DNA of 19,760 bases from a virus (lineage: Duplodnaviria; Heunggongvirae; Uroviricota; Caudoviricetes), in IMG/VR virus record IMGVR_UViG_2698536651_000010, positions 1 through 19,760 of that record; one strand, written 5' to 3'. This document shows positions 604-18,707 of the stretch, piece after piece. Position 1 is the stretch's first letter; each line of letters opens with the position of its first letter. Position numbers and translations under genes: made by a program. The notes beneath the pieces were generated by a model that was given only the letters and a program-made list of their open reading frames with translations, did no database searches and was not told the origin of the DNA.

Positions 604-2150
604 CAGGCTGACCTCACGATATAGTTAAATGCAATATTACGCGGACGCGTTTCTGAGGCTGCGGCACCTAAACCAGCCACTGATTGTTTATATGTTTTAA
701 AGGTTCCATAATCCGGTGCTGGTAATCCGGCATCGTTTGTGTTTCCTCTTTTGATAATGTCAGTGCCACTATTTACCCAGCTTTCATCAAAATAGAAATT
801 AATCGTTGCATCAGTCACAATCGTGGATCTTGACGGTAATCCATGAGCATGATCCTCCGTTGCATACCCCTGAATACTTAAAATAGAGCGACCTGTATCA
901 ATCCCCCGTCCGTCATCCCAGCCACGAATAAACTCACCACGTAAATCAGGCAATTTATTTGCCGGATAAGCCTTTGCTAGTTCCGGGTATTCTTCAGCAG
1001 AAAAAGCTGCACCATTGCATTTCAGCCAGCCTGTTGGCGGTGTGGCTGAAGGCCACGGAACAGGGACGCCAACAGGTAATGCAGAGCCTTCTCCCAAACC
1101 AAGGTATGTGAGAAGACCAGCTACATCCTTTCCACTCAAATTGGTAAGCGTATTGTCCAGCGGTTGTTTACCTGACAGCGCATTAAGCATTGTCGTGGCA
1201 AAGTTCGGATCATTCCCCAGCGCCGCTGCCAGTTCGTTCAGCGTATCCAGTGCCGCAGGTGCAGAACCCACCATTGCTGCAATTGCCGATTTCACAAAAG
1301 CGGTAGTGGCAATCTGTGTATTGTTGACCGACTGCGCCGCCGTGGGAGCTGTTGGCGTTCCGGTGAGTGCCGGACTCGACAGCGGCGCTTTTTGTGCCAG
1401 TGCATTGTTAATGGTGGTACTGAATTTCGGATCATTGTTAATGGCTGCGGCTATTTCTTTCAGCGTGTCCAGCGTGGCTGGCGCACCATTAATAAGAGCC
1501 GTCAGAGCCGCCTGAACAAACGCGGCGGTCGCAATCTGCGTGGTGTTATTCCCTGCTGCTGGCGTTGGCGCTTTGGGTGTCCCGGTAAACGTCGGACTTT
1601 CTTTGGGTGCATACTGTGAATGCGGGTCCGGTGCGGCAAGATGTTTTGCCATCTGATCATCCGCGTACACCTTCAGCTCCAGTACCTTATCATCCACATA
1701 CTTGCGGGTTGCCAGCACTACGGCAGGGTCGATTTTCAGGGTGATATTGTCCGTGCTGCTGGTAATCAGCACCATGCGCACGGTCTGGGTACGCCCGCTG
1801 CCTTCAGCCAGTTTCGGCTTATAGCTTTCCGGGCAGTTTCCCACGGCAATCAATGCCCCGGACTCATCAAACAGGCCCACTTCACGTATCCACCAACCGC
1901 CCTCGTTTTCAGGGATCACCTGTTCAGCAATAATCTGGCTACTGTTCTGCGGGTCGATATAAAGCATATTCAACGCAGCCCGGCGTTTCTCATTTACCAG
2001 TGCCGTCTGCTTTGCGTCCGGCGTCGGTAATACTCCGCCGCCATCGCCGACCGCCATATGGGTAATTTTTAGCGGCACACCGAGCGCGGCGGCGCTGGCA
2101 AGTTTCGCCGCGCCAATATCCGTCAGCAGGGTATAAAATTTTGTGCTCAT
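603..2150 (-). CDS. H: Tail fiber protein (P2 gpH-like N-terminus, tandem fibre repeats, tail-collar-type C-terminal domain)
   Basis: 515 aa. N-terminus MSTKFYTLLTDIGAAKLA...MAVGDGGG...AESYKPKLAEGSG resembles the conserved P2 gpH N-terminal domain. Two ~70-aa tandem repeats (TGTPxAPTxA...NNTxIATxAFV...DPxFxTT). C-terminus has a tail-collar-like motif (GWLKCNGAAFSAEEYPELAKAY...LPDLRGEFIRGW). ATGA overlap with gpI upstream. Confidence 0.9.
   Translation of the reverse strand: MSTKFYTLLTDIGAAKLASAAALGVPLKITHMAVGDGGGVLPTPDAKQTALVNEKRRAALNMLYIDPQNSSQIIAEQVIPENEGGWWIREVGLFDESGALIAVGNCPESYKPKLAEGSGRTQTVRMVLITSSTDNITLKIDPAVVLATRKYVDDKVLELKVYADDQMAKHLAAPDPHSQYAPKESPTFTGTPKAPTPAAGNNTTQIATAAFVQAALTALINGAPATLDTLKEIAAAINNDPKFSTTINNALAQKAPLSSPALTGTPTAPTAAQSVNNTQIATTAFVKSAIAAMVGSAPAALDTLNELAAALGNDPNFATTMLNALSGKQPLDNTLTNLSGKDVAGLLTYLGLGEGSALPVGVPVPWPSATPPTGWLKCNGAAFSAEEYPELAKAYPANKLPDLRGEFIRGWDDGRGIDTGRSILSIQGYATEDHAHGLPSRSTIVTDATINFYFDESWVNSGTDIIKRGNTNDAGLPAPDYGTFKTYKQSVAGLGAAASETRPRNIAFNYIVRSA
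1160..1600 (-). repeat. Tandem intragenic direct repeat (~220 bp unit) encoding the tail fibre repeat modules
   Basis: Near-duplicate DNA blocks, e.g. aagttcggatcatt at 1201-1214 and aatttcggatcatt at 1423-1436, followed by similar ...ttcagcgt(a/g)tccag... stretches. They correspond to the two protein repeats in gpH. Confidence 0.7.
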
Positions 2151-2752
2151 GGATTCACTCTCATTGTGTCAATAACATGGACCGCCCCGCCTTCATGCGC
2201 GGTGCCACCGGAAATAATCGTTTCGTTGATATACGGATAGATCGTGATTTCTTCGCCAAGATAGCTGGCGGCTCCCACCCAATGCGGGCCGCTGGTCTGC
2301 AGATTGATGGACATGCCGATCATGTGGCGGCTACATGGTTTGGCATCGCTTATCAGTCGCTCAAGTTCCAGATAGGTATCTTCAGTGATGCCATGGTCCT
2401 GCACTCCGATATCCAGGCGAAACGTGCCCGGTGCCTCTCCGGTCTGCCACCACTCAATAATGCGGATCAGAAAGCCGAACGGCTCCACCACCCGCCGCAC
2501 GGCACTGGTGGTCCCTTTATGCTGATGAATATAAAAAGCATCCTTCACCACCTGGCGCTTGACGCTTTCTGTCCAGCCCTCGTCCCAGCGATCCACAGAG
2601 AACGCCCAGGCGAGATAAGGCAGGAAACTGACCGGACAGGTTGCCGGATTCCACAAGTCACGAAGCGGCACCTGCAGATCAGAAATCCCGCTGCAGGTTT
2701 GCGCCAGTCGGCGCTCCAGTGGTGTTGAACCCGGTGGCAGCAGACTATTCAT
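2147..2752 (-). CDS. I: Baseplate assembly protein gpI
   Basis: 201 aa. MNSLLPPGSTPLE...RDLWNPATCP...LPYLAWAFSVDRWDEGW...GTFRLDIGV...ERLISDAKPCSRH matches the P2 gpI family as I recall it. ATG 2750-2752 preceded by AGGA; stop overlaps the gpH start. Confidence 0.85.
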   Translation of the reverse strand: MNSLLPPGSTPLERRLAQTCSGISDLQVPLRDLWNPATCPVSFLPYLAWAFSVDRWDEGWTESVKRQVVKDAFYIHQHKGTTSAVRRVVEPFGFLIRIIEWWQTGEAPGTFRLDIGVQDHGITEDTYLELERLISDAKPCSRHMIGMSINLQTSGPHWVGAASYLGEEITIYPYINETIISGGTAHEGGAVHVIDTMRVNP

Positions 2753-3422
2753 CCGTTCCTCCGTTGGTTACGCTCCACTGCGTACATGATGCCGCCTGTG
2801 TTTTGTTCAGGACCACATCCGCCAGAGGAGAAGCCAGCTCATCGGACTGCTCTTTTTTGGTAAACAGCGCCGTGACGCGGGCAAACAGGGACGGTTTGTC
2901 GTCCTGGATTTCTTCCAGTTCGATCACCGTTTCCTCTGCAGCGGTAAAGAGATTGGCAGGATTCTGCTTGCGGTTTGCCAGCGGGTTATGGGCTGCACTG
3001 GCGCTGAATGTCAGCATTTCCGTACCCAGACTGGCAGGGTCATCAGTGGCAGCCAGGCCGACCAGGTAGGCTTTGCCCGTATCAGCGAACTTCGGGCTGA
3101 CTTCCATAGAGGTGAATAATTTCTGGCCTTTTTTCACCAGTTCCACCAGGGACTCCGTTGGCTCAACGTCGGCATACAGCGCCATCTTGCCTGCCAGCGG
3201 ACCTGCCGTGATTTCTTCAGCAAACAGCGCCGTCACCTTGCCGTAGCGGTTAAAGGTGCTGTCCGGCAGATAAGACTTGATGTGCTCAAGGTTAATCAGC
3301 GCGGTATACACCGCCGGGTTGTAGCTGGCTGCCATCTGTTCCAGCCATTCACGCTGGATTTCGCGTCCGTCGGTGGTGGCACCTTCCACCCCGATGCGAA
3401 AACGCTTTGCTTTCACTGTCAT
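2745..3422 (-). CDS. O: Capsid scaffolding protein gpO-like, C-terminally truncated and running directly into gpI (likely deletion junction)
   Basis: 225 aa. MTVKAKRFRIGVEGATTDGR...INLEHIKSYLPD...YGKVTALFAEEI...SMEVSPKFADTGKAYLVGLAATDDPASLGTE... resembles P2 gpO (about 284 aa) over roughly the first 190-200 residues. The tail ...SCTQWSVTNGGTDE* has no O-like character, and the stop overlaps the gpI start. Confidence 0.7.
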   Translation of the reverse strand: MTVKAKRFRIGVEGATTDGREIQREWLEQMAASYNPAVYTALINLEHIKSYLPDSTFNRYGKVTALFAEEITAGPLAGKMALYADVEPTESLVELVKKGQKLFTSMEVSPKFADTGKAYLVGLAATDDPASLGTEMLTFSASAAHNPLANRKQNPANLFTAAEETVIELEEIQDDKPSLFARVTALFTKKEQSDELASPLADVVLNKTQAASCTQWSVTNGGTDE

Positions 3423-3500
3423 GAGCCGTGCTCCGTTAGAAAAAACTTACTGGAGCCTTATGGTTGCGGTGATGGGGGCAGTGAAACAATGCGCGGTATT

Positions 3501-3518
3501 TGTACCGACAACCACACA
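3501..3518. promoter_or_regulatory. Candidate Ogr/Delta-type late-promoter activator site (TGT-N12-ACA dyad) in the O-P divergent region
   Basis: TGTACCGACAACCACACA at 3501-3518 fits the TGT-N12-ACA element of P2-family late promoters. Its centre is about 55 bp from a plausible leftward start for gpO. Confidence 0.4.
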
Positions 3519-3564
3519 AACCGCAGGCGGGGAAAGCCTTCATTCAAGGCTGTAGGTTTGTGCC

Positions 3565-5331
3565 ATGAACACCACACTGACACCCGCAGATCTCGATCCC
3601 CGTCGGCAGGCCATGCTGCTGTACTTTCAGGGATACCGCGTAGCCCGCATTGCTGAAATGCTGGGCGAGAAAGTTGCAACCGTTCACAGCTGGAAAAAAC
3701 GCGACAAGTGGGGTGACTATGGGCCGCTGGATCAGATGCAGCTCACCACCGCCGCACGCTACTGCCAGCTCATCATGAAGGAGCACAAAGAAGGGAAAGA
3801 TTTCAAAGAGATTGACCTGCTGGCGCGCCAGTCTGAGCGCCACGCGCGGATCGGCAAGTTTAACAATGGCGGCAACGAATCCGACTTAAACCCTAACGTC
3901 GCCAACCGCAACAAAGGCCCACGCCGTCAGCCGGAAAAGAATGTTTTCACCGATGAGCAGATTGAGAAGCTGGAAGAAATCTTCCATTCCTCCATGTTCA
4001 ACTACCAGCGCCACTGGTGGGAAGCCGGAAAAACCAACCGCATCCGCAACCTGCTGAAGTCACGCCAGATCGGCGCGACCTTTTACTTTGCCCGTGAAGC
4101 CCTGATTGACGCCCTGCTGACCGGACGTAACCAGATTTTCCTTTCCGCCAGCAAGGCACAGGCCCACGTCTTTAAGCAGTACATCATCGACTTCGCCAAA
4201 GAAGTGGAGGTGGAGTTGAAAGGCGATCCGATGGTGCTTCCTAACGGGGCCACGCTTTACTTCCTCGGCACCAATGCCCGCACGGCCCAGAGTTATCACG
4301 GCAACCTGTATCTGGATGAATATTTCTGGATACCGAAATTCCAGGAACTGCGCAAAGTGGCTTCCGGTATGGCTATTCACAAGAAATGGCGACAAACCTA
4401 TTTTTCCACGCCATCCAGCCTGACACACAGTGCTTATCCGTTCTGGTCCGGTGCGCTATTCAACCGTGGGCGCAACAAAGCCGATAAGGTGGACATCGAC
4501 CTGTCCCACAGCAATCTGGCCCCCGGCCTGCTGTGCGCAGACGGGCAATACCGCCAGATTGTCACCGTGGAAGATGCAGTGCGCGGCGGATGTAACCTGT
4601 TCGACCTCGATCAGTTACGCATGGAGTACAGCCCGGACGAATACCAGAACCTGCTGATGTGCGAGTTTGTGGACGATCTCGCGTCTGTGTTCCCACTCAG
4701 CGAGCTGCAGGCGTGCATGGTGGACAGCTGGGAAGTCTGGACCGACTTTCATGCACTGGCACTGCGCCCATTTGGCTGGCGCGAAGTGTGGATCGGTTAT
4801 GACCCGGCGAAAGGTACGCAGAACGGCGACAGTGCCGGATGTGTGGTGGTGGCACCGCCAGCCGTGCCGGGCGGCAAGTTCCGCATTCTTGAGCGTCACC
4901 AGTGGCGCGGGATGGACTTTCGCGCCCAGGCTGACGCCATCAAAAAACTGACCGAACAGTACAACGTGACCTATATCGGCATCGACTCAACCGGCGTTGG
5001 TCACGGAGTTTATGAGAACGTGAAAGCGTTCTTTCCTGCCGTCCGGGAGTTTGTCTACAACCCCAACGTTAAAAACGCCCTGGTACTCAAGGCCTACGAC
5101 ATTATCAGCCACCGCCGTCTGGAGTTTGACGCCGGGCACACCGACATTGCGCAGTCATTCATGGCAATCCGTCGCGCCACCACCGCCAGTGGCAACCGCC
5201 CGACCTATGAAGCCAGCCGCAGCGAAGAAGCCAGCCACGCCGATCTGGCCTGGGCAACGATGCACGCACTGTTTAACGAACCGCTGCAGGGCGAATCCGC
5301 CAATACCAGCAATATTGTGGAGATTTTTTGA
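3565..5331 (+). CDS. P: Terminase ATPase (large) subunit gpP
   Basis: 588 aa. N-terminus MNTTLTPADLDPRRQAMLLYFQGYRVARIAEMLGE... is typical of P2 gpP. Length matches. Stop TGA overlaps the Q start (TGATG). Confidence 0.95.
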   Translation: MNTTLTPADLDPRRQAMLLYFQGYRVARIAEMLGEKVATVHSWKKRDKWGDYGPLDQMQLTTAARYCQLIMKEHKEGKDFKEIDLLARQSERHARIGKFNNGGNESDLNPNVANRNKGPRRQPEKNVFTDEQIEKLEEIFHSSMFNYQRHWWEAGKTNRIRNLLKSRQIGATFYFAREALIDALLTGRNQIFLSASKAQAHVFKQYIIDFAKEVEVELKGDPMVLPNGATLYFLGTNARTAQSYHGNLYLDEYFWIPKFQELRKVASGMAIHKKWRQTYFSTPSSLTHSAYPFWSGALFNRGRNKADKVDIDLSHSNLAPGLLCADGQYRQIVTVEDAVRGGCNLFDLDQLRMEYSPDEYQNLLMCEFVDDLASVFPLSELQACMVDSWEVWTDFHALALRPFGWREVWIGYDPAKGTQNGDSAGCVVVAPPAVPGGKFRILERHQWRGMDFRAQADAIKKLTEQYNVTYIGIDSTGVGHGVYENVKAFFPAVREFVYNPNVKNALVLKAYDIISHRRLEFDAGHTDIAQSFMAIRRATTASGNRPTYEASRSEEASHADLAWATMHALFNEPLQGESANTSNIVEIF

Positions 5332-6359
5332 TGGGAAAGAGTAAGAAGAACCGCGCTGCGGCGACGAAACAGATCCAGCTTAAAAGTCAAACTACAGCCG
5401 AAGCATTCAGCTTCGGCGATCCCGTTCCTGTTCTGGACCGCCGAGAATTACTGGACTATGTGGAATGCGTACAGATGGACCGTTGGTATGAGCCACCAGT
5501 GAGTTTCGACGGGCTGGCGCGCACCTTCCGCGCTGCCGTGCATCACAGTTCCCCGATTGCAGTAAAGTGCAACATTCTGACCAGTACCTATATCCCTCAT
5601 CCGCTGCTCAGCCAACAGGCTTTTTCGCGTTTTGTGCAGGACTATCTGGTATTTGGTAACGCCTATCTGGAGAAACGCACGAACCGCTTCGGTGAAGTTA
5701 TCGCCCTTGAACCTGCGCTGGCAAAATACACCCGACGCGGGTTAGACCTGGATACCTACTGGTTTGTGCAATACGGTATGACACCCCAGCCGTATCAGTT
5801 CACGAAAGGCAGCATTTTTCATCTGATGGAACCGGACATCAACCAGGAGATCTACGGCCTGCCCGGTTATCTTTCTGCCATTCCGTCAGCTCTGCTCAAC
5901 GAGTCCGCCACGCTGTTCCGCCGCAAGTATTACATTAACGGCAGTCATGCTGGCTTCATCATGTACATGACCGATGCCGCGCAGAACCAGGAGGACGTGA
6001 ACAACCTCCGCAATGCGATGAAAAGCGCCAAAGGCCCTGGCAACTTCCGCAACTTGTTTATGTACTCGCCTAACGGCAAAAAGGACGGGCTTCAGATCAT
6101 TCCTCTGTCAGAAGTCGCGGCGAAGGATGAGTTTCTGAATATCAAGAACGTGAGCCGGGATGACATGATGGCGGCGCATCGTGTGCCACCGCAAATGATG
6201 GGGATTATGCCTAATAATGTTGGAGGGTTTGGGGATGTAGAGAAAGCTGCTAATGTTTTTGTGAGGAATGAACTCATCCCTTTACAAAAAAGACTAGAAG
6301 AGCTGAACGAATGGATAAATGAAGAAGTTATTAATTTCGTGAGTTATTCAATTACCTAA
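5331..6359 (+). CDS. Q: Portal protein gpQ
   Basis: About 342 aa from ATG 5331 (the ORF track starts at TTG 5328). Size and position downstream of gpP match the P2 portal; translationally coupled to P. Confidence 0.9.
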   Translation: MGKSKKNRAAATKQIQLKSQTTAEAFSFGDPVPVLDRRELLDYVECVQMDRWYEPPVSFDGLARTFRAAVHHSSPIAVKCNILTSTYIPHPLLSQQAFSRFVQDYLVFGNAYLEKRTNRFGEVIALEPALAKYTRRGLDLDTYWFVQYGMTPQPYQFTKGSIFHLMEPDINQEIYGLPGYLSAIPSALLNESATLFRRKYYINGSHAGFIMYMTDAAQNQEDVNNLRNAMKSAKGPGNFRNLFMYSPNGKKDGLQIIPLSEVAAKDEFLNIKNVSRDDMMAAHRVPPQMMGIMPNNVGGFGDVEKAANVFVRNELIPLQKRLEELNEWINEEVINFVSYSIT

Positions 6360-6364
6360 TAAAC

Positions 6365-6395
6365 AAAAAGGCCATTAAATGGCCTTTTTGTTTTT
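6365..6395. terminator. Bidirectional rho-independent terminator shared by convergent Q and retron RT
   Basis: AAAAAGGCCATTAAATGGCCTTTTTGTTTTT: a GC stem flanked by an A-run and a T-run. It overlaps the last codons of the RT. Confidence 0.7.
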
Positions 6396-7349
6396 AGGAA
6401 AAAGAACACTTAGATCAACCCCATATGTTTCAGACATTTTATTTGAGAAAGTCATCAATTTTCTATAGTTTTTCTTGTCTACACTTTTAACAAACGCAAT
6501 AAGTCCTTTAACATGTTCGAAATCAGAATTTCTTTTTACCGCCAGATAATGGATCTTACTTCTAATTTCGCGATAACGTATTCTGCCAACTCCAACATTA
6601 TCAATAGATAAAACGAGCCCAGTAACCTCCTTCCTTGCTTTGGGGCCATGAATCGCAACTTTATTATAATTAACCTTCAAAGATTCACTTGGTATTATAG
6701 AGCATACAAATGACTTAGCTTTAAGTATTTTTTTTAAAGATTGAGCAGATAAAGTCAAATCATCGGCATATCGAGTAAATACGATCCCCTTACTACCTGC
6801 ATATCCATGTATTCTATAATCTAATTTAGTTAAAACAAGATTCGCAATCTTTGGAGAAGATGGTGCACCTTGAGGTAGCGAACCATTAAATGAACACAAT
6901 CTTGCTAAAGCATTAGAAATAGTAGAGTTATACCCCAGAGAATGAAAAACAGTATAGATTTTCTCTATCAGAATAGTATTAAAACAATCTTCTAAATCAA
7001 TATTTAATACATAGTTAGCTCCTACATGTGGGCTGGCATTATTTAATATTGATTGCCCTTTTTCAAAGCCTTTGGAAAATGGGGATGAATGTAACTTATC
7101 AAGGATGTTTCTTAACACCCAAGCTTGCAATGCCTTCAGCTCACGTGATGGCTGTGAAATGATGCGGGATCTCTTGCCATCTCTTTTTGGCAACGAATAA
7201 ACCTTATAGTATTTGTCAGCACGATAAATGTACAACCGGAGTATGTCTACTGATAAACGCATTTCTCTAGACATATCCTCTAAAGAGGACATAACAGGCA
7301 ATCCAAGATTGCGTAAGCGAAAAACCTGAGATGGTGTTGCGGAAGTCAT
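6375..7349 (-). CDS. Retron-type reverse transcriptase
   Basis: 324 aa. RT motifs: NIDLEDCF (motif A), LPQGAPSSPKIANL (motif B), RYADDLTLS (YADD catalytic motif C). Also the retron-associated NAxxH (NASPH) and VTG (EVTGLVL) motifs. ATG sits 2 nt after the a2 repeat, whose AAGGG acts as the SD. Region is AT-rich. Confidence 0.9.
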   Translation of the reverse strand: MTSATPSQVFRLRNLGLPVMSSLEDMSREMRLSVDILRLYIYRADKYYKVYSLPKRDGKRSRIISQPSRELKALQAWVLRNILDKLHSSPFSKGFEKGQSILNNASPHVGANYVLNIDLEDCFNTILIEKIYTVFHSLGYNSTISNALARLCSFNGSLPQGAPSSPKIANLVLTKLDYRIHGYAGSKGIVFTRYADDLTLSAQSLKKILKAKSFVCSIIPSESLKVNYNKVAIHGPKARKEVTGLVLSIDNVGVGRIRYREIRSKIHYLAVKRNSDFEHVKGLIAFVKSVDKKNYRKLMTFSNKMSETYGVDLSVLFPKNKKAI

Positions 7350-7351
7350 GA

Positions 7352-7510
7352 GCGCACCCTTACGTCATAAAAATCAGATTCCGAAGTGAAAGGAGAACAT
7401 CGGGAGATGTTCTCCTTTCAATGAGGGAACTGGTAAAACTTCAGATTGTATGTAGGACAGCGAAACACTGTCCAGTGAACTTCCGGAGAAGCCACTCGCT
7501 AAGGGTGCGC
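7352..7510 (-). ncRNA. Retron msr-msd non-coding RNA flanked by a1/a2 inverted repeats
   Basis: 11-bp inverted repeats GCGCACCCTTA (7352-7362) and TAAGGGTGCGC (7500-7510). Perfect 15-bp stem with 4-nt loop at 7387-7420 (msd-like hairpin). Short hairpin GGACAG/CTGTCC at 7455-7473 (msr-like). A G follows a1 in the transcript. Confidence 0.8.
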
Positions 7511-8404
7511 AAAACGCATCCTATCATAGTGGAGTATTGTTTTACCACGATTTTCGAAGTTCATCATATCCAGTCGTAGATTGTCCAAAGCCTTTCGATC
7601 AAAATGCTCAAGAACGTATTGCATACCAATTTCTGTAATATGGTATCCTTGAACTGAACGTCTAATTATTGACTCTTTAATCAAGCTTGAAATAACAGAC
7701 TTAACGATAATTTCACAAAGAATAGCATCTTTCTTAGTCACCAAATGTAATAGCTCATATAGAAGTATATTATCTATACCATCCATCAAATATATACACG
7801 GCAGTATAAAACGCCGAGCGTGAAGAATATTATCTATTGAGTGATTAACTGGGTTATTTTTTTTGATGTCATTAATACTTTTTATAATTCTATTATAAAA
7901 AGCTTTACCTGTACTCAAGCTTTCAAGAGTCGACAAATCTCCTCGCAATACTGCACCGCTATTAGCACGCCGAAGCAGTTTTATAGGCCCATAATTAAGA
8001 AAGCTTTTTTTAAGTTTGAATTTGTCATCCTGAAGACATATCATTTTTTTGCACAGTTTTTCATTATTTGAAAATGCGCCCAATTCAGCGAAAGAACCTG
8101 GGCTTTCAGGAATAATAATAATAACATCGACTGAATCAGCTAAAATATTCTCCAAACTTAAAAGACTATGCTGACCTTGTCCATACAAAAGCTCATCAAA
8201 CAACTCCTCAGGATAGAATATTTCTATTTTGGGATGTGTTTCCAACACTCTTTTAACTTTATTTCTACAAAAAAACGGATCATTCAAATCGCCCCCGCAA
8301 AGGAAAACAGTAACTTTATTTTTATTTTTCTGTTGAAAAAGCCGACTTTTAATTAAATTTGCCAGATTTTGCTTCTGCAACTCCGGAATAGTTTTCTTTT
8401 TCAT
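7499..8404 (-). CDS. Putative retron effector: N-terminal NDT-like (nucleoside deoxyribosyltransferase/LOG-like) domain plus C-terminal probable winged-helix DNA-binding domain
   Basis: About 301 aa from ATG 8402-8404 (track ORF starts at GTG 8410). Glycine-rich strand VTVFLCGG and IIIPESPGSFAELGAF resemble the NDT/LOG-type active-site region. Stop TAG (7499-7501) lies inside the a1 repeat. Very AT-rich. Confidence 0.7.
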   Translation of the reverse strand: MKKKTIPELQKQNLANLIKSRLFQQKNKNKVTVFLCGGDLNDPFFCRNKVKRVLETHPKIEIFYPEELFDELLYGQGQHSLLSLENILADSVDVIIIIPESPGSFAELGAFSNNEKLCKKMICLQDDKFKLKKSFLNYGPIKLLRRANSGAVLRGDLSTLESLSTGKAFYNRIIKSINDIKKNNPVNHSIDNILHARRFILPCIYLMDGIDNILLYELLHLVTKKDAILCEIIVKSVISSLIKESIIRRSVQGYHITEIGMQYVLEHFDRKALDNLRLDMMNFENRGKTILHYDRMRFAHP

Positions 8405-8918
8405 ATCCACTTTTCCTCAGAATGATCCCATCTTTTATACAACATTCAAATCTGAGTTTCCACCCGCTGCGCGCGCTCGTATCCCCGCCACGCCTGCCCG
8501 CTTTATGTAGTGGTTTTCATGCACCTGCATGACATAAGCAAAAGCACGCCAGTTCTGGCTGACTTCAGCAAAAACGATCCTCAAACGATCATGCGATCTC
8601 ATGCGTCATAGTCATGCGCTGCCAAGGGAAGCGTAAATCCGTATCTGAATGACTGCTGAAAAGCGAATCATACGGGTTTACAAAGATGAAAGTTCGCTGT
8701 GAGCGAGAAGCGAACCTTGCAACTTTGTTGGCACAGTTTTAACACCAATTTTTTGAGGATAGCTAGAAAACTTGTGGCATAAAGGATCAGTTTCCCGATC
8801 GAACTTTTTATCAAGAAGGGCTCATAGCAATCGCCAGAAGAAGTGATGTTAAAGTATTGAGCTCGGCGTTAAGATTAAATAAATTACAGACTAATCCAAT
8901 GTTTTGTGGAAGGATAAG

Positions 8919-9962
8919 ATGGCAGTCAAGCGCGCATACTACGGTAACGATAGTGACCGAGACTACTTAGAGCGGATATTTCAGTCAGCTAACATTAACT
9001 TTCTCATCGGATCAGGTGCATCCCTCCCAGCGATTAAAGTACTGGGGACAATCGAAACGGATCTTCAGCAGCTTATTAATGATGAACAGGAAGATGAATA
9101 CTTAAGGATGGCAGCTGACTTTTTGTCAGATGTTTGGCTACCTCATGAATGCATGTTGAAGCGCGGCTACGGCACCCCCTTCGCACCTCAGGTGATCACC
9201 GATTTGGAATGTACCCGTGCAAATTATGATGCATTTATGTCTTCACTGGAAAAGATACTGACCCGCCGCCGAACTGGCCTACTTCCGAGGCGTATTAACG
9301 TTTTTACAACTAATTATGATTTATTCATCGAAGAAGCTGCCACACGTAATAACAATATTCTTTTTAATGATGGATTCAATAGAAGAGCAAGTATTTTGGG
9401 AGATGCGGAATTTGATGCGGGTAGCTTTAATCATTCTGTAAGTGCAACCGGAAATCTGTATAATTATAAAGTTGAGCTTCCTACTGTTAACCTTATAAAA
9501 CTTCATGGTTCGCTCTCTTGGCAGCATTCTAAAGGGAAAATCATTTATCGTATTGCAGATATTAAGCCGCTTGACTTTCCCACCCTAGCCGAAATGAAAG
9601 GATGGGTACTTGCTCATGCACTTATTCTTCCACGTAAGGAGAAGTTTAAAGAGACTCTACTACAGAACGTTTATTATGATTTACTGAGAACCTATTCCAA
9701 CGAGCTTGATAAAGAAGCAACTTTACTAATTGTCTTTGGGTTCTCATTTGCTGATGAGCACATTGAAACGATAACTAAAAAAGCCCTGCGCAACGCCACC
9801 CTGAAGCTACTGATCTTTGCTTTCGATGAGGCCAGTGTTAACGGCTTTATGGAGAAATTTCGGGATTACTCAAACGTAGAGATTATTTATCGGCCGGGAA
9901 GAAATGTTGATTTTCCGGTAATGAATAACATTATCACGTGCTATCTGGGAGGCTCGAGATGA
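8919..9962 (+). CDS. SIR2-family (sirtuin-like) NADase of a SIR2-HerA defence pair
   Basis: ATG 8919 with AAGGA SD (track ORF starts at TTG 8904). Motifs FLIGSGAS (NAD-binding glycine loop), VFTTNYD, KLHGS (catalytic His), LIVFGFSFAD. Stop overlaps the HerA start (ATGA). Confidence 0.85.
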   Translation: MAVKRAYYGNDSDRDYLERIFQSANINFLIGSGASLPAIKVLGTIETDLQQLINDEQEDEYLRMAADFLSDVWLPHECMLKRGYGTPFAPQVITDLECTRANYDAFMSSLEKILTRRRTGLLPRRINVFTTNYDLFIEEAATRNNNILFNDGFNRRASILGDAEFDAGSFNHSVSATGNLYNYKVELPTVNLIKLHGSLSWQHSKGKIIYRIADIKPLDFPTLAEMKGWVLAHALILPRKEKFKETLLQNVYYDLLRTYSNELDKEATLLIVFGFSFADEHIETITKKALRNATLKLLIFAFDEASVNGFMEKFRDYSNVEIIYRPGRNVDFPVMNNIITCYLGGSR

Positions 9963-11818
9963 GCAGGCATTTTACTGAAGAGGAAGCGGTGCTCCGTATA
10001 GGCGAAGTCTGTGAGGTTTCTGGACGCGCTGTGACAATTTTGGTCGATAAAAACAAAAATCTCAGTGACTTGTTTTATCAGGGAAAAGTTCTAAGAAATG
10101 TATCAGTGGGTAGCTTCATTGAGATCAAAAAAGGTTTCATGAGCCTGATCGGCAAGGTTGAAGCGGAACGAATCATTGAGGAAAAACATCTCGCTGGGAG
10201 CGGCAGTGATGCCTGGCGATATCGGCGATACCTGACCTCTACTCTTACGGGTTACATTGATCGTACTGGTTGCTTCATTGGTGGTTCGCGTGAACTACCT
10301 CTCATCGGCAATGAAGTCTTCGTGGTAACTGAAGAGATGATACAGACGGTTCATCAGATAGCTGATGCAGACGAAACTGTAATGAGGTTTACTCGTACAG
10401 ATCTTGAAGATATTGAAATTGCACTACCAATCAATGGTCTTATTAATTCCCACATTGCCATTTTCGGTAATACAGGCAGCGGAAAGTCAAATACCCTAGC
10501 CGCGCTATACAAAGCAGGTATTGCCCAAGTTAAACATATTCTCGGCAACCACTTTAGTGAAAGATGCAAATTTATTCTATTCGACTTTAATGGAGAATAT
10601 ACTGCCCCACGCTGTATTACTGACGAGAAGACGGTTTATAATCTCAACACGCACCATGCAAATGGTGACAAACTTCCTCTACCCAGAGAGGTTCTACTTG
10701 AGCATGATATGCTCTCAGTTCTAACCGATGCAACAGACAAAACACAGAAACCTTTCCTGAAGAGAGTTCTTGAGTTTCGCAAGAAAGTGATGACCGCTGA
10801 CAATCCTCTTGAGTTTATGCGCAATATCCTGAAGAAAAAAGTCAGACAAAATCTCTTTAGTAGCGACAAACCCAAATGCGATACTATAAATCAGTTTCTT
10901 AGCCCAATTTTCAAAGATGACCCAGAACTTATATCTGATCTTGAGTATCATTCAACTGCATATAAATGGAAATTGAGGGGTGGTAGTATTTTCAATACAG
11001 AAGCTGATACTGAGCGCTCCTATCTATTCAGTCTTGCAAGCAATTTTTCATTTAAAACTGATATGATTGAAGAACTGTTGGACTTTATGTACTTACAGTT
11101 AATACAGGAATATTTATCTAACAAGTCTAACCCTGAACATATTTCACCAGTTATAAATAGAATGAGTGCTAACCGTAAAGATATAGCCAAAATATTTGAT
11201 ACTTCCGGACAGTCTGATTTTTGGGGTGAACATAATTTCACGGTTGTGAATCTAAATATGGTTAATATAACCATGAAAAAAACGCTTCCTCTTTTGATAG
11301 CCAAGTGGGCTTACAATATGAAGAAAATGTCTACAGAGAAATCTACACTGCACATCATTATAGATGAAGCCCACAATATTTTGTCTAATACTTCTTTTCG
11401 GGAAACGGAAAGTTGGAGAGATTATCGTCTGGAAACTTTTGAGGAAATCATAAAGGAGGGGAGAAAATTTGGAGTTTTTATCACAATTTCCAGTCAACGC
11501 CCTAATGATATATCGTCGACAATCATATCCCAAGCACACAATTATTTTATTCATCGCCTTATTAATCAGAATGATCTGTACGCAATTGAAAAATCAGTAT
11601 CATATATAGATCGACTGACTGAAGAGTCGATTCCAACGCTATCTACAGGAACCTGTATTTTTAGTGGTATCGTCTGCCCCATGCCGCTCAAATTAAGGGT
11701 AGCTGAACTTCCAATTGAAGAAAAACCTAAGAGTAATACTATTTCCTTCAACGATTTAATACCTGAGAGGCTGGGAGAGGATGACCAGAGCGACTACGTA
11801 ATAACCAGCCCTCACTAA
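9959..11818 (+). CDS. HerA-like (FtsK/HerA superfamily) ATPase, partner of SIR2
   Basis: ATG 9959 with GGGAGG SD (track starts at GTG 9938). Walker A GNTGSGKS and Walker B/DEAH-like HIIIDEAH. About 620 aa, typical of HerA partners in SIR2-HerA systems. Confidence 0.85.
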   Translation: MSRHFTEEEAVLRIGEVCEVSGRAVTILVDKNKNLSDLFYQGKVLRNVSVGSFIEIKKGFMSLIGKVEAERIIEEKHLAGSGSDAWRYRRYLTSTLTGYIDRTGCFIGGSRELPLIGNEVFVVTEEMIQTVHQIADADETVMRFTRTDLEDIEIALPINGLINSHIAIFGNTGSGKSNTLAALYKAGIAQVKHILGNHFSERCKFILFDFNGEYTAPRCITDEKTVYNLNTHHANGDKLPLPREVLLEHDMLSVLTDATDKTQKPFLKRVLEFRKKVMTADNPLEFMRNILKKKVRQNLFSSDKPKCDTINQFLSPIFKDDPELISDLEYHSTAYKWKLRGGSIFNTEADTERSYLFSLASNFSFKTDMIEELLDFMYLQLIQEYLSNKSNPEHISPVINRMSANRKDIAKIFDTSGQSDFWGEHNFTVVNLNMVNITMKKTLPLLIAKWAYNMKKMSTEKSTLHIIIDEAHNILSNTSFRETESWRDYRLETFEEIIKEGRKFGVFITISSQRPNDISSTIISQAHNYFIHRLINQNDLYAIEKSVSYIDRLTEESIPTLSTGTCIFSGIVCPMPLKLRVAELPIEEKPKSNTISFNDLIPERLGEDDQSDYVITSPH

Positions 11819-11831
11819 TTAACAAAGTGCT

Positions 11832-11851
11832 GAAGCGGTAACGACCGCTTC
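11832..11851. terminator. Candidate hairpin between convergent HerA and DinI-like genes
   Basis: GAAGCGGT-AACG-ACCGCTTC, an 8-bp perfect stem. No strong U-tract on either side, so terminator function is uncertain. Confidence 0.3.
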
Positions 11852-11962
11852 TAGCACAAAGCGGACGATCACTTATCAAAATGCCCGCCCACCTTACGCC
11901 TCGTTTCACTCGTTGCCCAAACTAGCCCCCATCAGAATGAATCCTCCTGGAGGCAACGTTTC

Positions 11963-12196
11963 TTAATGCAGCCAGCTGTCGTCTTCCCACACTTTCTGCA
12001 TAATTTTCATCACTTGTTTTCTTTCTTCATCCAGTTGCAGTCCGGTCAGTTCCACACCGTTAGAGCTACCTTTGCGGATACGAATTACCGTTTTGGGATA
12101 CAGGGGGCGCAGATTGCGGTAAAGCTCGGATTCAAGGGCGTCCATGGTAGACTGGCTAATCTTCTGCTCTTTATCGATCATTATTTCAATGCGCAT
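11963..12196 (-). CDS. DinI-family protein
   Basis: 77 aa from the internal ATG (MRIEIMIDK...), with GAGGTG SD. Aligns in pattern with E. coli DinI (MRIE..., ...DAL..EL..., ...EERKQ...W...D.W). The track ORF carries an unlikely 24-aa N-terminal extension. Confidence 0.7.
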   Translation of the reverse strand: MRIEIMIDKEQKISQSTMDALESELYRNLRPLYPKTVIRIRKGSSNGVELTGLQLDEERKQVMKIMQKVWEDDSWLH

Positions 12197-12206
12197 AAAA
12201 GTCACC

Positions 12207-12395
12207 TCAGCTGATGATATCCATTGAGCGGTTGTATTCGTGGCTTCTGATTTTTGCCATGAGTTCATCTGTCAGTTCAGAAACCCACTGCAAAGCCAGC
12301 CCCTTCTCTTCATCACTACACTCACTAGCCGCTACAAGCTTAAGAAAAAAATCAATGCGCTGGAGCTTCAAAGACTCCAAAAAATAGTCCTGCAT
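12207..12395 (-). CDS. Small hypothetical protein, first gene of the LexA-controlled operon (possible Tum-like antirepressor module)
   Basis: 62 aa. ATG 12393-12395 preceded by a strong SD (AGGAGG). Lies about 43 bp downstream of a perfect LexA box. The Tum-like role is inferred from position and SOS control only. Confidence 0.5.
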   Translation of the reverse strand: MQDYFLESLKLQRIDFFLKLVAASECSDEEKGLALQWVSELTDELMAKIRSHEYNRSMDIIS

Positions 12396-12437
12396 CTTTC
12401 CTCCTATAACACCAAATCAATACTGTATACATAACCA

Positions 12438-12453
12438 CTGTTTATATTCACAG
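12438..12453. promoter_or_regulatory. LexA (SOS) box
   Basis: CTGTTTATATTCACAG is a perfect CTGT-N8-ACAG palindrome with an AT-rich spacer, just upstream of the small ORF/DinI-like operon on the minus strand. Confidence 0.7.
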
Positions 12454-12468
12454 TATATAATAATCTTA

Positions 12469-12499
12469 CTGATGTAAAACGTTTTTTTACGTTCATCAG
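12469..12499 (-). terminator. Candidate terminator hairpin downstream of repA
   Basis: CTGATG...CATCAG outer stem with inner AACGT/ACGTT pairing and a T/A-rich loop, followed by AT-rich sequence. Imperfect stem. Confidence 0.35.
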
Positions 12500-12547
12500 C
12501 CTGATATGCCTGGTATTATTAAGAGCACGAATTGTTAAACCGCGTAA

Positions 12548-14962
12548 TTAATACAGATCCCGCCACTTATCATCTTCCTGCAAACGCTGGTTCCGATAGA
12601 AGATACGCAGGCCTGCTCCTGACGGAATACTGCCGCCGCGAAGGAGTAAATCGACCTCTTTCTCGCTACTATCAAATCCTCTGGACTTCAGCTCATAGAC
12701 GAGCTGCTGTCGCTGATGGTCTGTAATTCGCTGTTTGTAGTCTTTACGCCGTTTCGGTTTAACCAAGCATAACCTTGCTGCCAGTTCCCGGCGCTCTTTT
12801 TTGCTCATACTGTGCAGGTAATCGTGCAACTCCTTGTCATCCATGCGGGTGATATCCGTTCTGGTATCCCCATCAGCTGATTTGTCTTTCCCTTGTTGAT
12901 TCAAATTTTCAGCAAGGGGACAGTTATTGCCACGAGTCCAAGGGGCGCAAGCGCCCTGGTCGGCTGCCGCCTCCTGAACGTCAACGGCCTTACGAACTAT
13001 TTTCCACTTCACTGCATGAGTGCAGATCTTGCCCTCTGCAATGGGTGACCAGATGCCATAAATACGAATACCGTGATCACCATAGGCGGTCGGCTCTTCG
13101 TTGATTTCATAAGCGGTTCTGATCAAGTGATATTTGCGGGGAACCAGTACGCCGCCCTGCTTCATGATGTAGGTGGCAAAACAACCAGCATCAGCAGCAG
13201 CCAGGATGGCATCAAGGCGCGGGTTATCCAGTACCGGCGCACCTGCTTTTTTGTCACCCTGTTGCCTTGCCGCCTGACCAGCCAGCAATCGCAGTTCACG
13301 GTAAGCCTGACGCCCCGGAATGCCAAAGAAGCGGAATTGCTGAACACGATGCAGAGACGCCCAGGCATTAACGTATTCAGCGTTATCACGCAGGGATTTA
13401 CCCGTTTCCTTACTGATCTCGCCAGCCAGACCACGCCCGTCAATATTCTTACTGATATATTTCGCAATGTAGCTTGTCGGCGTTCCTTTGCGCGGGTTTA
13501 TCAGCTCAGACTTAAAGCGTGGCCCCGTGTTATTGCCCAGCTCCTCGCGGTCTTCACGGATGGCAAACTTACGCAACAATGCAGTAATGGCGCGGCGGTC
13601 TTTTTTGCGCATGAAACACAACAGGTGCCAGTGAACTGTGCCGTCATGATGCGGCTCAGCCACCCGCACGCCATACCAGCGCAACCCGGCTTTGTGCATA
13701 GCCTTACGAAATGCAGCAAACATGCCGACCAGATAATCGCTGCTTTGTCTTACTGTCGCGTTGGTCCAGGTCGGGTTTGGCCTACCGTTATTTAGCGTGG
13801 AATGGAAACGTGACGGACAGGTGATGGTGTAGAAAACGGCGCAGTCACCACGCATTTCCGCGATAAGCTCCAGGCCTTTAACACAGGTCATCATCTCGTT
13901 GCGGCGATGCGCCGGGTTGCTGCTGCTGGCGTTTACCACATCCTCCATGTTCAGCGTGTCGCCGTCTTCGTTCACCAGTTCATGAGAACGGAAAAACTCC
14001 AGCGACTTACGGCGCTGCTCACGTTTATGCATCACGGCTTCATAGCTGACATAGGGAGATGCTTTTTTGCTGACCAGGCAGACAGCACGCAACTGCTCTT
14101 CCCGCCATTCGCAACGCATCTTCCATAATTTCCGATACCACCAGTCGGCGCACAGCATACGCGCCAGCGACCCCGGAATGAGTTCATAGGGCACGGGTTT
14201 ACGGCGGTTTCTTTTCCGGCGGAGTTGCTCAAACGCAGGCGGTATGACATCCAGTCGCAGGGTTTCTGCTGCCACCTTTTCCCATGTCTTGCGGATTTCT
14301 TCTGGCTTAACGTCATCGGTGGCATACAAATCACCACAAGCGGCATCAAGGCACATGCTCATATGCGCAGCGACAAGGGTAGACAGGCGCTTCACCTGAT
14401 CCTGACTCATTTCAGGCAGGATAAGCAGGCCATCCAGCCCTTCATGGCTTGCCATAAAGCGAAAAGAAGTGGATAGCTGACAGTCGCGGACATGCTCCAG
14501 TCGTTCCAGACATGGCTTAATCGTCTCACGCAAATAGCGGGAATAAGCCTTTGGCCTGCCCAGGCTGCTGAAATATTCAATACGTTGCATCAGCGGCTTG
14601 CTGATATGGGAAGGCTGGGCATTGACGTCAGCCAGAATGACCATGTCTGGATTAAAACGCTGCTGCTCATGCGCCAGCTTTGCCCGGCTAATGAGCTTAT
14701 CCTGCTCCATTTCGCGCTGGACAGGATCACGGGATTCATTAAAGAAATAACGCTCCCAGACCTGATCACTCAGTGCCTCGCGGCGCAGTTGTTCCTGCTC
14801 GTTATCGGCAGCGTACAGAGTGATCAGGTTTGAAAGTGCAGAAACCGGCGCAACTTCCGCCGGGTCCTGATAAGGGTTAATAGCCTTTTTCGGGCTGTTC
14901 CATGAGAATGCTGCGGCGACCTCGTTAAAGCCGCTGCAGTTGTTCATATCATCATGGCTCAT
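12548..14962 (-). CDS. A: Replication initiation endonuclease (P2 gpA / 186 RepA family, HUH rolling-circle type)
   Basis: 804 aa. HUH-type motif ...[11 protein letters not shown].... Large size and position at the end of the early operon fit the family. ATGA overlap with dam upstream. Confidence 0.9.
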
Positions 14963-15816
14963 GCACGCACTCCGTATACGGCTGAACTATCCACGCCACG
15001 CGAAGGATCAAATCCCACCCAGCAGCGCGGCCCGGAAACAGCGATGATTTCAGTTGCAGATTTACTCTCACCAGCTGCTACGCCGATGCTGCGTTTTGCC
15101 TTGATGTAGTGGTGAGTAAAATTGCGATACAGCGAACGGATCAGGGATGTGTCACTGTTAGAAACAATGACCGGATGTCCTTCTGATGACCGATGTTCAA
15201 GCACAGATGCCAGGCGATACTGGTCATCTTCAGTGAAGCCATCAGTGTGATAGCCGGAAAACGTACCGTCATAAGGCGGATCGCAATACACAACATCCCC
15301 CGCGTGCAACATCGCCAGCGTTTCATCGAAGCTGGCGCAGATAAACGTTGCCCGCTGGGCTTTCTCTGCAAATGCGCGAATTTCTTTTTCAGGGAAATAC
15401 GGATTTTTATAATTACCGTAGGGAATGTTGAAATGCCCGCTCTTGTTATAGCGACATAACCCACGGTAACCATGTCGATTGAGATACAGGAAATATACCG
15501 CTTTCATGAAATTAGTAATTTCAGTTGAGTAGTTAAACTCCTGCCTTATGTTGTAATAAGCCACCTCCCTGTTTGCTTCCTCAAATAAAACTCTGGCGCG
15601 AGATATAAATAATTCACAATCAGCGGCAACCTTTTTATAGAGGTTGATTAAATCAGGATTAATATCCGCAACCAGATAGCTGGGGTAATCCGTTTCCATC
15701 ATCACTGCACAGGAACCCGCGAAAGGTTCAACCAGTCGCAGGCCAGCAGGAAGGTGTTTTTTCAGTTCTGGCATAATGGCGGTTTTATTTCCCGCCCATT
15801 TCAGGATGGTGCTCAT
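14959..15816 (-). CDS. dam: DNA adenine methyltransferase (Dam-like, N6-adenine)
   Basis: 285 aa. N-terminal SAM-binding motif LKWAGNK and catalytic DPPY. Translationally coupled to both neighbours. Confidence 0.9.
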
Positions 15817-16040
15817 ACAGCACCTCCGTTGTAATGTTTACCTTTCAGCTCTGCGATTTCCTGACAGGTAATGCAAAGCTGCACTCCCGGAATGGCGCGG
15901 CGGCGTGCTGGCGGAATTGGCGCTTCACACTCTATGCAAAGCACGCGAGACACGCCCGGTGTTTTGGCACGGGCAGCACGGATGTGGCGCTGGCGTTCTT
16001 CTTCAACGCGCTGCTGTACGAGATCCATTGCATCAGCCAT
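15813..16040 (-). CDS. DksA/TraR-family C4 zinc-finger protein
   Basis: 75 aa. Cys pairs CIECEAPI...CITCQ with a basic region between them. Stop overlaps the dam start. Confidence 0.75.
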   Translation of the reverse strand: MADAMDLVQQRVEEERQRHIRAARAKTPGVSRVLCIECEAPIPPARRRAIPGVQLCITCQEIAELKGKHYNGGAV

Positions 16041-16273
16041 CAGTGGATCTCCTGCGCTTCGTTCTGGATTGCTTCAGCAGTCACACGCAGCAGTTCTGCC
16101 GCTTCGACGTGGTTTAGTTGGCGGGATGTGATATGACACGCCAGGCTATCAAGGCGAGCTGCCATTGCTTCAGCCCTTGCCCGGCGTTCTTCCAGACGAG
16201 CCTCTGTCAGTAAAATATTAAGCCCTGCATCATCCGGTCCGGTTTTAGTCGTGAGGGTTTCAATATTACGCAT
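16040..16273 (-). CDS. Hypothetical early-operon protein
   Basis: 77 aa from ATG 16271-16273 with AGGAGA SD (track starts at TTG 16279). Stop overlaps the TraR start. No recognisable motif. Confidence 0.55.
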   Translation of the reverse strand: MRNIETLTTKTGPDDAGLNILLTEARLEERRARAEAMAARLDSLACHITSRQLNHVEAAELLRVTAEAIQNEAQEIH

Positions 16274-16340
16274 AATCAATTCTCCTGAATTTAGATAAAG
16301 GGATGCCCGGCGGGTTTACGCCATTAATTTCATTAGTTGG

Positions 16341-16682
16341 TTAATTCGGCATGGTTAGCCGTCTGGGAAATAAGCTCACCACTACACGAAAATGATTCAT
16401 TGCTTTAATCAACTCCCGCTTTTCGTCAGTGGTCAGCTCATTAATGCTGATGCTATGACGTTCAGCTGGAATTTTTGCCATAAAGAATATGGCAGCCAGT
16501 GCCCTTTTATTTTGTTCATTATTGATATCCCATGGATCACGCATATCTTTAATAAACCGCTCAAGCTCTGACTCAATATTTAGGCCAAAAACTTTCGCCC
16601 TTAACTCCGCAATGTGATTAAGTCCATTCAGGCGTTCACCGGGGCTTAATGGAACAGTCGCCGCAGTGCCTTCAATAGCCAT
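16341..16682 (-). CDS. Hypothetical early-operon protein
   Basis: 113-aa ORF in the operon orientation. Overlaps the upstream small ORF by about 36 nt in another frame. No recognisable motif. Confidence 0.5.
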   Translation of the reverse strand: MAIEGTAATVPLSPGERLNGLNHIAELRAKVFGLNIESELERFIKDMRDPWDINNEQNKRALAAIFFMAKIPAERHSISINELTTDEKRELIKAMNHFRVVVSLFPRRLTMPN

Positions 16683-16846
16683 TTGTTCCCCCGTTTTTTC
16701 GTAGATAGTTCTGCCAGCAATTCATCTTGTGAACGGCACGGATGCCAGCGTTTACCATCCTCCCCCATGATCCAGCCGTGACCGTAATGCATTGCCGGGC
16801 TTTGTTTAACCAGCAGCGATGCAAATGATGGTTCTTTCGTCAGCAT
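16646..16846 (-). CDS. Hypothetical small protein at the position of 186 fil
   Basis: About 66 aa from ATG 16844-16846 (MLTKEPSFAS...), with GAGGTG SD overlapping the cII stop. The track ORF start at 16876 would overlap cII. Confidence 0.5.
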   Translation of the reverse strand: MLTKEPSFASLLVKQSPAMHYGHGWIMGEDGKRWHPCRSQDELLAELSTKKRGNKWLLKALRRLFH

Positions 16847-16853
16847 AAGCACC

Positions 16854-17363: not shown

Positions 17364-17395
17364 GGTCAATGCCTCTGATGTATTTCAGAATCGAA

Positions 17396-18312: not shown

Positions 18313-18327
18313 TACCGGGAGGAAATT

Positions 18328-18519: not shown

Positions 18520-18707
18520 CTTTTGCTTTTATATCTGCGCCTAAAATAAAAATGAGCCACAGGTTAACCGCAAAAGTTACATGATCACATAGCAAAAAGA
18601 ATAGCCTACTTCATTATGGCTTCAGTGAGATGTATGGTCGCAGGATTTCATACATTGACACTGGTTATACATACAGTAAAAATGCTCTCTATTGGAGGGC
18701 ATTTTTT

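Follow-up and report, generated by a model that had tools for sequence, protein, structure and literature searches.

Retron and SIR2-HerA cassettes on the two sides of cos in the gpQ-gpA interval of a 186-like prophage

Is the AT-rich DNA between the portal gene and the replication gene of a P2-family prophage a single defence island, a pair of separately acquired elements, or ordinary phage DNA? The question is raised by the IMG/VR record IMGVR_UViG_2698536651_000010 (Caudoviricetes), of which positions 1 to 19,760 were analysed as one stretch of 19,760 nucleotides, hereafter the window. The interval at issue, 6360-12460, encodes a retron of the Ec86/St85 family and a two-gene SIR2-HerA system. 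With a probability of about 0.88, it is the cos-proximal gpQ-gpA accessory locus of a 186-like, SOS-inducible P2-family prophage of E. coli, filled by two independently exchangeable cassettes that flank the packaging site cos and were separately acquired. The landmarks of this hotspot are all in place, with the portal gene Q ending at 6359, the predicted cohesive end of cos at 8476-8494, and the replication initiator gpA at 12548-14962. The remaining genes of the window, annotated in RefSeq as a Dam-like methylase, CII, Fil, CI and an integrase, mark the prophage as a 186-like, SOS-inducible member of the P2 family.

A sequence-only reading of the window had described the interval as an AT-rich island of about 6 kb, carrying a retron and SIR2-HerA at the place where P2 carries cos and its old and tin genes, with the prophage in reverse orientation, and these points held up well. 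The G+C content (GC) is 0.393 over 6360-12460 and 0.507 in the remaining window; 6360-11845 is 35-40% GC, against 51% outside the interval. The proposed sliding-window check, run with 500-bp windows, gave values of 0.52-0.60 at approximately 1000-6250 and 12750-15000, and a drop to 0.32-0.45 between approximately 6250 and 12500. GC at third codon positions (GC3) brings out the contrast more sharply, with values of 0.27 for the reverse transcriptase (RT) gene, 0.29 for the retron effector gene, 0.39 for SIR2 and 0.37 for HerA, as opposed to 0.70 for P, 0.59 for Q, 0.57 for A, 0.55 for the DinI-like gene and 0.52 for orf62. The cargo is therefore atypical of the backbone in both GC and GC3. The map of P2 does show cos together with old and tin in this interval, and the maps of P2 and 186 have cos at the left end with Q or W on the complement strand, as expected if the window is reversed. 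Matches to PADLOC, Pfam and Protein Data Bank (PDB) entries identify the two systems as a retron and SIR2-HerA (Table 1).

The exchange of this DNA among relatives was surveyed in 5426 complete E. coli genomes. Parts of 6000-12800, namely the portal, cos and DinI-A flanks, are matched in 1286 of them, whereas 80% or more of the segment is covered in only one, that of strain VG888-46E9, which is 100% identical over 6000-12800 and 99.7% identical over 2839-19760 and whose locus is annotated in RefSeq. The exact pairing of this retron with SIR2-HerA is accordingly rare (1 of 5426 genomes). The usual pattern in a spread sample is conservation of the portal end, the cos core and the DinI-A region at approximately 90-96% identity, with unrelated cargo in between. 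Dozens of unrelated cargos were seen, including KAP NTPase, DprA, AIPR, DarT with a macro domain protein, GmrSD, TIR, PIN, HNH, DUF262, DUF4145, an AAA ATPase with a nuclease, CdiI/RNase-A-like proteins, the retrons Ec67 and Ec86, and others. The earlier suggestion that related prophages would show swapped cargo between conserved flanks was thus confirmed, and the opposite outcome, a constant gene set of backbone-like composition at this position, was not observed.

The same comparison divides the interval in two. BLAST breakpoints against six relatives fall at 6244-6351, at 8468/8469, at 8621 or 8707, and at 11845-11953, and in 13 of 14 related E. coli loci cos lies between two cargo positions. 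The portal-side gap measures 1.2-3.4 kb in all 13 of these loci, and the A-side gap ranges from 203 bp (empty, in three loci) to 3.5 kb. GC is 0.353 in the left slot, 0.506 in the cos core and 0.401 in the right slot, the backbone being at 0.53-0.55; a cos core of backbone-like GC, together with the breakpoints, indicates two cassettes and not one island. Their partners vary independently. The same SIR2-HerA genes, at 99% identity or more, are present in 13 genomes beside at least six, and probably seven, different left cargos: this retron, Ec67, HipA with HIRAN, ParA with RelA/SpoT, a GTP pyrophosphokinase (possibly of the same family as the RelA/SpoT cargo), AIPR, and hypothetical genes. The same retron, found in four genomes, is accompanied by three right-slot contents, namely SIR2-HerA, DUF2971 with or without a group II intron, and hypothetical genes. 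What survives of the earlier picture of one defence island is variable cargo in a hotspot; what does not is its unity, since cos lies in the middle and the two sides are exchanged separately. The position of cos, the end coordinate of the cargo, a large deletion of morphogenesis genes, and a left boundary inside the 3' end of Q (6245-6351) were likewise not part of that picture.

Table 1. Features of the gpQ-gpA interval and its flanks, with the main evidence for each.
Feature	Position	Strand	Evidence or remark
Terminase large subunit	3565-5331	+	Pfam/RefSeq; backbone flank
Portal gene Q	5331-6359	+	Pfam Phage_portal; RefSeq annotation of identical locus; backbone
Left slot	~6245/6360-8468		From Q terminator to 8 bp from cohesive end
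Bidirectional intrinsic terminator common to Q (+) and RT (-)	6361-6393	both	Perfect 16-nt inverted repeat with A-run and T-run
Retron RT, Ec86/St85 family, type II-A	6375-7349	-	PADLOC RT_II-A, 4.6e-123
Retron non-coding RNA, msr-msd	7350-7511	-	Sequence reading, fold, Ec86 alignment
Retron effector, N-terminal nucleoside-deoxyribosyltransferase-like domain and C-terminal DNA-binding region	7499-8404	-	PADLOC NDT_II-A, 2.6e-97; glutamate in PESPGSFAELGAF
cos packaging site	8469-8707	-	Aligned to annotated P2 and 186 cos ends; backbone; GC 0.506
Right slot	~8622/8708-11845		From end of cos arm to ~115 bp past DinI-like stop
SIR2-HerA cassette as transferable unit	8688-11841	+	Own upstream region and 3' hairpin at 11827-11857
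SIR2-family NADase component	8919-9962	+	PADLOC SIR2 PDLC04080, 6.3e-211; Pfam SIR2_2
HerA-family ATPase	9959-11818	+	PADLOC HerA PDLC04097, 6.1e-267; Pfam DUF87
DinI-like gene, 77 aa	11963-12196	-	Pfam DinI, 8.6e-23; backbone, GC3 0.55
orf62, first gene of LexA-box operon	12207-12395	-	PHROG 698, 1.3e-37, unknown function; backbone
LexA box CTGTTTATATTCACAG	12438-12453	.	42 bp upstream of orf62
Replication initiator gpA	12548-14962	-	Pfam Phage_GPA, 5.6e-128; RefSeq 'replication endonuclease'; backbone flank

A single 6-kb island, gained in one acquisition and joining functionally linked systems, is very improbable. The two systems are adjacent and both AT-rich, both are thought to act through effectors directed at NAD+ or nucleotides, and the exact pair recurs at 100% identity in one other genome; however, the cos core at 8469-8707 separates them, their compositions differ, the variety of partners on each side largely refutes a shared origin, and SIR2-HerA also occurs alone in a chromosomal island. 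There is next to no probability that the interval is core phage DNA made AT-rich by regulatory or structural constraint near cos, as it would be if related prophages carried the same genes there with backbone-like composition. Although the DinI-like operon and its promoter region (11846-12547) are somewhat AT-rich (0.436) and yet conserved, the cargo is found in only one of the 1286 related E. coli loci, where the retron sits here, the distance between cohesive end and portal stop codon in P2 and 186 is 167-177 bp, portal terminator included, the right slot is empty in three relatives, and GC3 separates the cargo genes (0.27-0.39) from the backbone genes (0.52-0.70).

It is also improbable that the cassettes are mainly addiction or stabilisation modules of toxin-antitoxin type whose anti-phage activity is secondary. 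Both systems have homologues whose role as abortive-infection defences is established, and systems cloned from the hotspot protected against phages (PMC9122126), even if titles cited in the same paper describe retrons of this family as tripartite toxin/antitoxin systems, toxin-antitoxin-like occupants of the same slot include HipA, PIN, DarT with macro and RelA/SpoT, and the cargo here is kept in a prophage unable to form particles. Defence and addiction are not mutually exclusive roles. Several observations weigh against the preferred interpretation of two phage-borne defence cassettes flanking cos. Expression, production of multicopy single-stranded DNA (msDNA) and phage resistance are predicted from homology, with RT 59% and effector 50% identical to their Ec86 counterparts; a promoter consensus scan found promoter-like sites no more often than in shuffled sequence; neither cargo matched any of 50,697 deposited phage records in a DNA search; and the prophage in the window has lost capsid, lysis and baseplate genes. 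In addition, the SIR2 and HerA proteins are distant from the solved complexes (E values of 1e-21 to 1e-27) and miss the NCBIfam equivalog cutoffs, scoring 99.8 bits against 500 for SIR2_antiphage and 138.7 against 800 for HerA_antiphage.

The packaging site that separates the two cassettes is well conserved. Its predicted 19-nt cohesive end, GGCGTGGCGGGGATACGAG, runs from 8494 to 8476 on the minus strand and aligns, with both flanks, to the annotated cohesive ends of 186 (GGCGTGGCGGGGAAAGCAT) and P2. It is 186-like over the first 13 nt and different in the last 6, and a search with the P2 cos 19-mer at up to three mismatches gave no match. The core at 8469-8621 (153 bp) is kept in all relatives and 8622-8707 in a subset, giving a core of up to 239 bp; the cos segment as a whole is kept in 13 of 14 related E. 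coli loci irrespective of cargo. Conservation beside the cohesive end extends only 8 bp on the portal side, as compared with at least 127 bp on the A side. The A-side cos arm (8500-8625) contains repeated CATGC(A/G) motifs and three GATC sites; similar TGCAT/CATGC repeats are found at the right ends of P2 and 186, and are presumably terminase recognition elements.

The left cassette is a type II-A retron. Its RT scores 272 bits against NCBIfam retron_St85_RT (cutoff 235), matches PDB 7V9U at 5.6e-124 and is 59% identical over its full length to the Ec86 RT of BL21, in alignment with which the motifs NAxxH (as NASPH), YADD and VTG are intact. Its effector scores 186 bits against NCBIfam STM3845_fam (cutoff 100), matches PDB 7V9X chain C at 5e-92 and is 50% identical, again over its full length, to the Ec86 effector. 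For both proteins the top-scoring PDB entries are Ec86 structures. The 149-bp gap between the effector and RT genes contains the msr-msd non-coding RNA (ncRNA), which was located by eye and then confirmed against Ec86 of BL21, with which it aligns. The a1 segment, GCGCACCCTTA, occupies 7510-7500, overlapping the effector stop codon and directly followed by a G, the predicted branching G, at 7499; the a2 segment, TAAGGGTGCGC, occupies 7362-7352, just ahead of the RT start, and the predicted msd hairpin lies at approximately 7375-7432. The ncRNA folds at -73.7 kcal/mol (z = -8.6). A scan of genome contigs with the 16-nt a1 motif returned 110 stretches, mostly chance matches, of which only a Serratia proteamaculans retron (L033) was usable; in the three-way alignment of the window, Ec86 and this ncRNA, 12 of 45 predicted pairs show compensatory changes, and a1 and a2 are invariant. 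No retron RNA family was found by Rfam at gathering or permissive thresholds. An msr-msd upstream of the effector was considered and rejected, the distance from the cohesive end to the effector start being just 71 bp; the ncRNA sits between effector and RT. With intact RT motifs, the ncRNA and an effector resembling nucleoside deoxyribosyltransferases (NDT), the cassette belongs to the Ec86/St85 type II-A group by every feature that can be tested in sequence. It is a rare variant, present in 4 of the genomes surveyed, versus 48 for Ec86. A decayed copy may survive in E. coli LR-48 (L006, locus 1860-3525), where the hotspot has an IS1 insertion and lacks the cos 12-mer: directly after Q, some 225 bp still match the 3' end of the RT gene of the window, and the locus looks like a remnant of the same cassette.

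The 71 bp between the cohesive end and the effector start (8405-8475, minus strand) contain a candidate promoter, TGGAAA (8462-8457) and TATAAA (8439-8434) at a spacing of 17 nt, together with GAGGAAAAG, which resembles a Shine-Dalgarno sequence. The retron operon would thus begin almost at the left end of the linear genome in virions. A promoter split by cos was set aside because, on inspection, these 71 bp hold a plausible site of their own. In Retron-Eco1 (Ec86), msDNA and RT restrain the effector, and the outcome is abortive infection. By analogy, the RT of the window would reverse-transcribe the msd portion of its ncRNA to give msDNA; a complex of RT and msDNA with the NDT-like effector would hold the effector inactive, and disturbance by a phage would free the effector to kill or arrest the cell. 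Sen2, a related retron of type II-A, is reportedly triggered by Dam-type methylases of phages. The early operon of the window includes a DNA adenine methylase at 14959-15816 (by RefSeq annotation of the near-identical locus), and no GATC was seen by eye in the predicted msd.

The right cassette consists of co-oriented SIR2 and HerA genes, the stop codon of the former and the start of the latter overlapping by 4 bp. The SIR2 motifs GSGAS, TTNYD and KLHGS align with those of the solved SIR2-HerA chains 8YHX and 8J4U, and HerA has Walker A (GNTGSGKS) and Walker B (IIIDEAH) motifs and matches PDB HerA chains at 1e-27 to 1e-18. Since the PADLOC subfamily models are matched over their full length (698 bits for SIR2, 885 bits for HerA) and the NCBIfam equivalog cutoffs are missed, the pair appears to form a subfamily that differs from the NCBIfam equivalogs. 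The system is of SIR2-HerA kind, and this predicted subfamily is one for which no link to any experiment was found. Systems of this family deplete NAD+ and act by abortive infection; the two proteins encoded here would, by analogy, assemble into a complex that depletes NAD+ upon infection. The genes also travel outside P2-like prophages: a cassette with the same ends (8688-11841) is found at 91% identity in a non-P2 chromosomal island adjoining ypjA, and a relative at 75% identity sits among metabolic genes. The 3' hairpin of the cassette in the window (11827-11857) has a folding energy of -21 to -23 kcal/mol.

Hairpin-forming sequences, GAAAGTTCGCTGTGAGCGAGAAGCGAA at approximately 8686-8712 and CCGCTTCTAGCACAAAGCGG at approximately 11846-11865, mark the limits of the right slot in several phages whose cargo differs, and recur at both ends of the 91% identical cassette in the chromosomal island (L013, approximately 6990-7020 and 10150-10200). 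The stability of the left hairpin alone is not significant (z = -1.6). These sequences could be phage flank carried over with the cassette, or a recombination signal. No transposon-like direct or inverted repeats flank either cassette, and transposition was rejected as the insertion mechanism for this reason. In the lysogen, both cassettes would be expressed and would act as lysogenic-conversion cargo that shields the host and the prophage from other phages. Their turnover would take place by recombination in the conserved flanks, namely the cos core, the 3' portion of Q and the stretch downstream of DinI.

Rousset et al. (PMC9122126) speculate that cos ends are a substrate for recombination. 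With its boundary 8 bp from the cleavage site, the left slot fits this idea but does not prove it. The gpQ-gpA hotspot might even comprise two mechanistically distinct recombination slots, although this is rather doubtful: left replacement reaching within 8 bp of cleavage would point to terminase-cut ends as the recombination substrate on the portal side, and boundary hairpins travelling with SIR2-HerA into a chromosomal island would suggest cassette-like mobility on the A side.

The left cassette extends into the portal gene. The last 115 bp or so of Q (6245-6359; approximately 38 codons) are AT-rich (GC 0.32) and variable among relatives, being identical in loci with this retron or its remnant (L005, L006) and divergent in loci with other cargo, to which similarity stops at 6244-6351. 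Since the Q tail diverges in step with the left cargo, each left cassette supplies its own portal C-terminus and terminator, and a structural gene that is essential contains the recombination breakpoint. The sequence-only reading had taken the bidirectional Q/RT terminator as one bound of the island; it is a perfect inverted repeat that is stable on both strands (-24.9 and -24.5 kcal/mol; z = -7.7 and -6.5). The RT stop codon sits within its loop, and its position matches that of tQ in P2 and tW in 186.

The other bound had been placed at the LexA-controlled operon, with an end at 12460. Its LexA box does align with the annotated LexA site of the p95 promoter of 186, but the cargo ends at approximately 11845. 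The DinI-like gene, present in essentially all relatives, and orf62, which is also kept in relatives, have backbone-like GC3; the operon is therefore a boundary and not cargo, and the proposed end overshoots by about 600 bp. The pattern CTGT-N8-ACAG occurs once in the window (0.25 expected by chance), and LexA control of the operon can reasonably be deduced from it. From the perfect box toward the start of orf62 there follows a weaker LexA-like half-site (…GGTTATGTATACAGTA, approximately 12418-12436). Residues 71-145 of Tum, the C-terminal half of that protein, share 41% identity with the DinI-like protein (4e-24); orf62 has no detectable similarity to Tum, its N-terminal half included.

At the left of the window the prophage is extensively deleted. 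A truncated scaffold gene O (2745-3422; positions 2-199 of 268 in the GPO profile) abuts the tail gene I (2147-2752), beyond which lie H (603-2150) and a tail-fibre assembly gene (1-231). The junction is at 2838/2839. Judged by the gene order of P2, the deletion took out some 9 kb, comprising N, M, L, the lysis genes, R, S, V, W and J. In the complete E. coli genomes, no place covers this O-I junction to 80% or more, and strain VG888-46E9, for all its similarity, is not the source of the window. The loss of morphogenesis genes makes the prophage defective here, and any benefit of the cargo to the phage is therefore historical in this instance. In E. coli E423 (L125, locus 1-657) a partial tail gene I stands beside a partial portal gene, the product of a different large deletion. 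Large morphogenesis deletions may thus recur in this prophage lineage while defence cargo stays.

The hotspot itself is well documented. It was described across 18,150 E. coli loci as a cos-proximal gpA-gpQ interval with retrons, SIR2-domain proteins and other systems, often more than one per locus (Rousset 2022, PMC9122126), and was found again in 1511 delimited P2-like prophages, of 8165 detected (Moura de Sousa 2026, PMC13586616); in their passages on the interval, both papers treat it as one hotspot. The hotspot, the retron position and the multi-system cargo are already known, and the locus is an ordinary instance, not new in kind. It offers little new biology, being a textbook-quality case of phage-borne defence cargo, with both systems from characterised families, in a hotspot catalogued over thousands of genomes. 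The explicit two-slot structure, the swap of the portal tail and the hairpins common to a chromosomal island are refinements that are not stated in the passages of PMC9122126 and PMC13586616 concerned with the interval. A base-level map of the cos core, the two slots and the portal breakpoints could sharpen large analyses that lump both sides of cos. The window also supplies a divergent SIR2-HerA subfamily and an Ec86 paralogue with a different msd, which may be of use in retron editing tools.

The closest known counterpart of the left cassette is Ec86 itself, at the same position in the 186-related cryptic prophage of E. coli B/BL21. The order in BL21(DE3) is portal, RT, ncRNA, effector, cos, a small open reading frame, DinI, orf62 and A, and a bidirectional terminator stands beside the portal gene in both Ec86 and the window. 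Dodd and Egan (Virology 219:115) reportedly placed both Ec86 and Ec67, in 1996, between cos and the portal terminator. The paired core of a1 and a2 is identical in Ec86 and the window and the fold is the same, whereas identity over the whole ncRNA region is 69% and the stems of msr and msd contain small indels; the msDNA should therefore differ in sequence from that of Ec86 and is probably a few nucleotides shorter. The right slot of BL21 holds only a 111-aa hypothetical gene, in contrast to SIR2-HerA in the window.

In P2 the same cos-adjacent interval, the gpA-gpQ hotspot, likewise carries variable, defence-rich cargo, but all of the cargo of P2 (orf91, tin and old) is on the A side of cos, and 167 bp separate its cohesive end from the Q stop codon. 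In the window and in 13 of 14 related E. coli loci, unlike P2, cargo occupies the portal side, and it occupies the A side in some cases only. The SOS operon of 186 (p95-tum-orf97) has its LexA box at the homologous position and points toward cos, and the cos flanks align. Whereas Tum of 186 is a single protein of 146 aa, the window has two genes, orf62 and the 77-aa DinI-like gene. The orf97 gene of 186, which is on the A side of cos, is absent from the window, where SIR2-HerA occupies that position on the opposite strand. With the solved SIR2-HerA complexes (8J4U/8SU9, 8YHX, 8WLD) the right cassette shares overlapping, co-oriented genes, the SIR2 motifs and the Walker A and B motifs of HerA, and it is distant from them in sequence.

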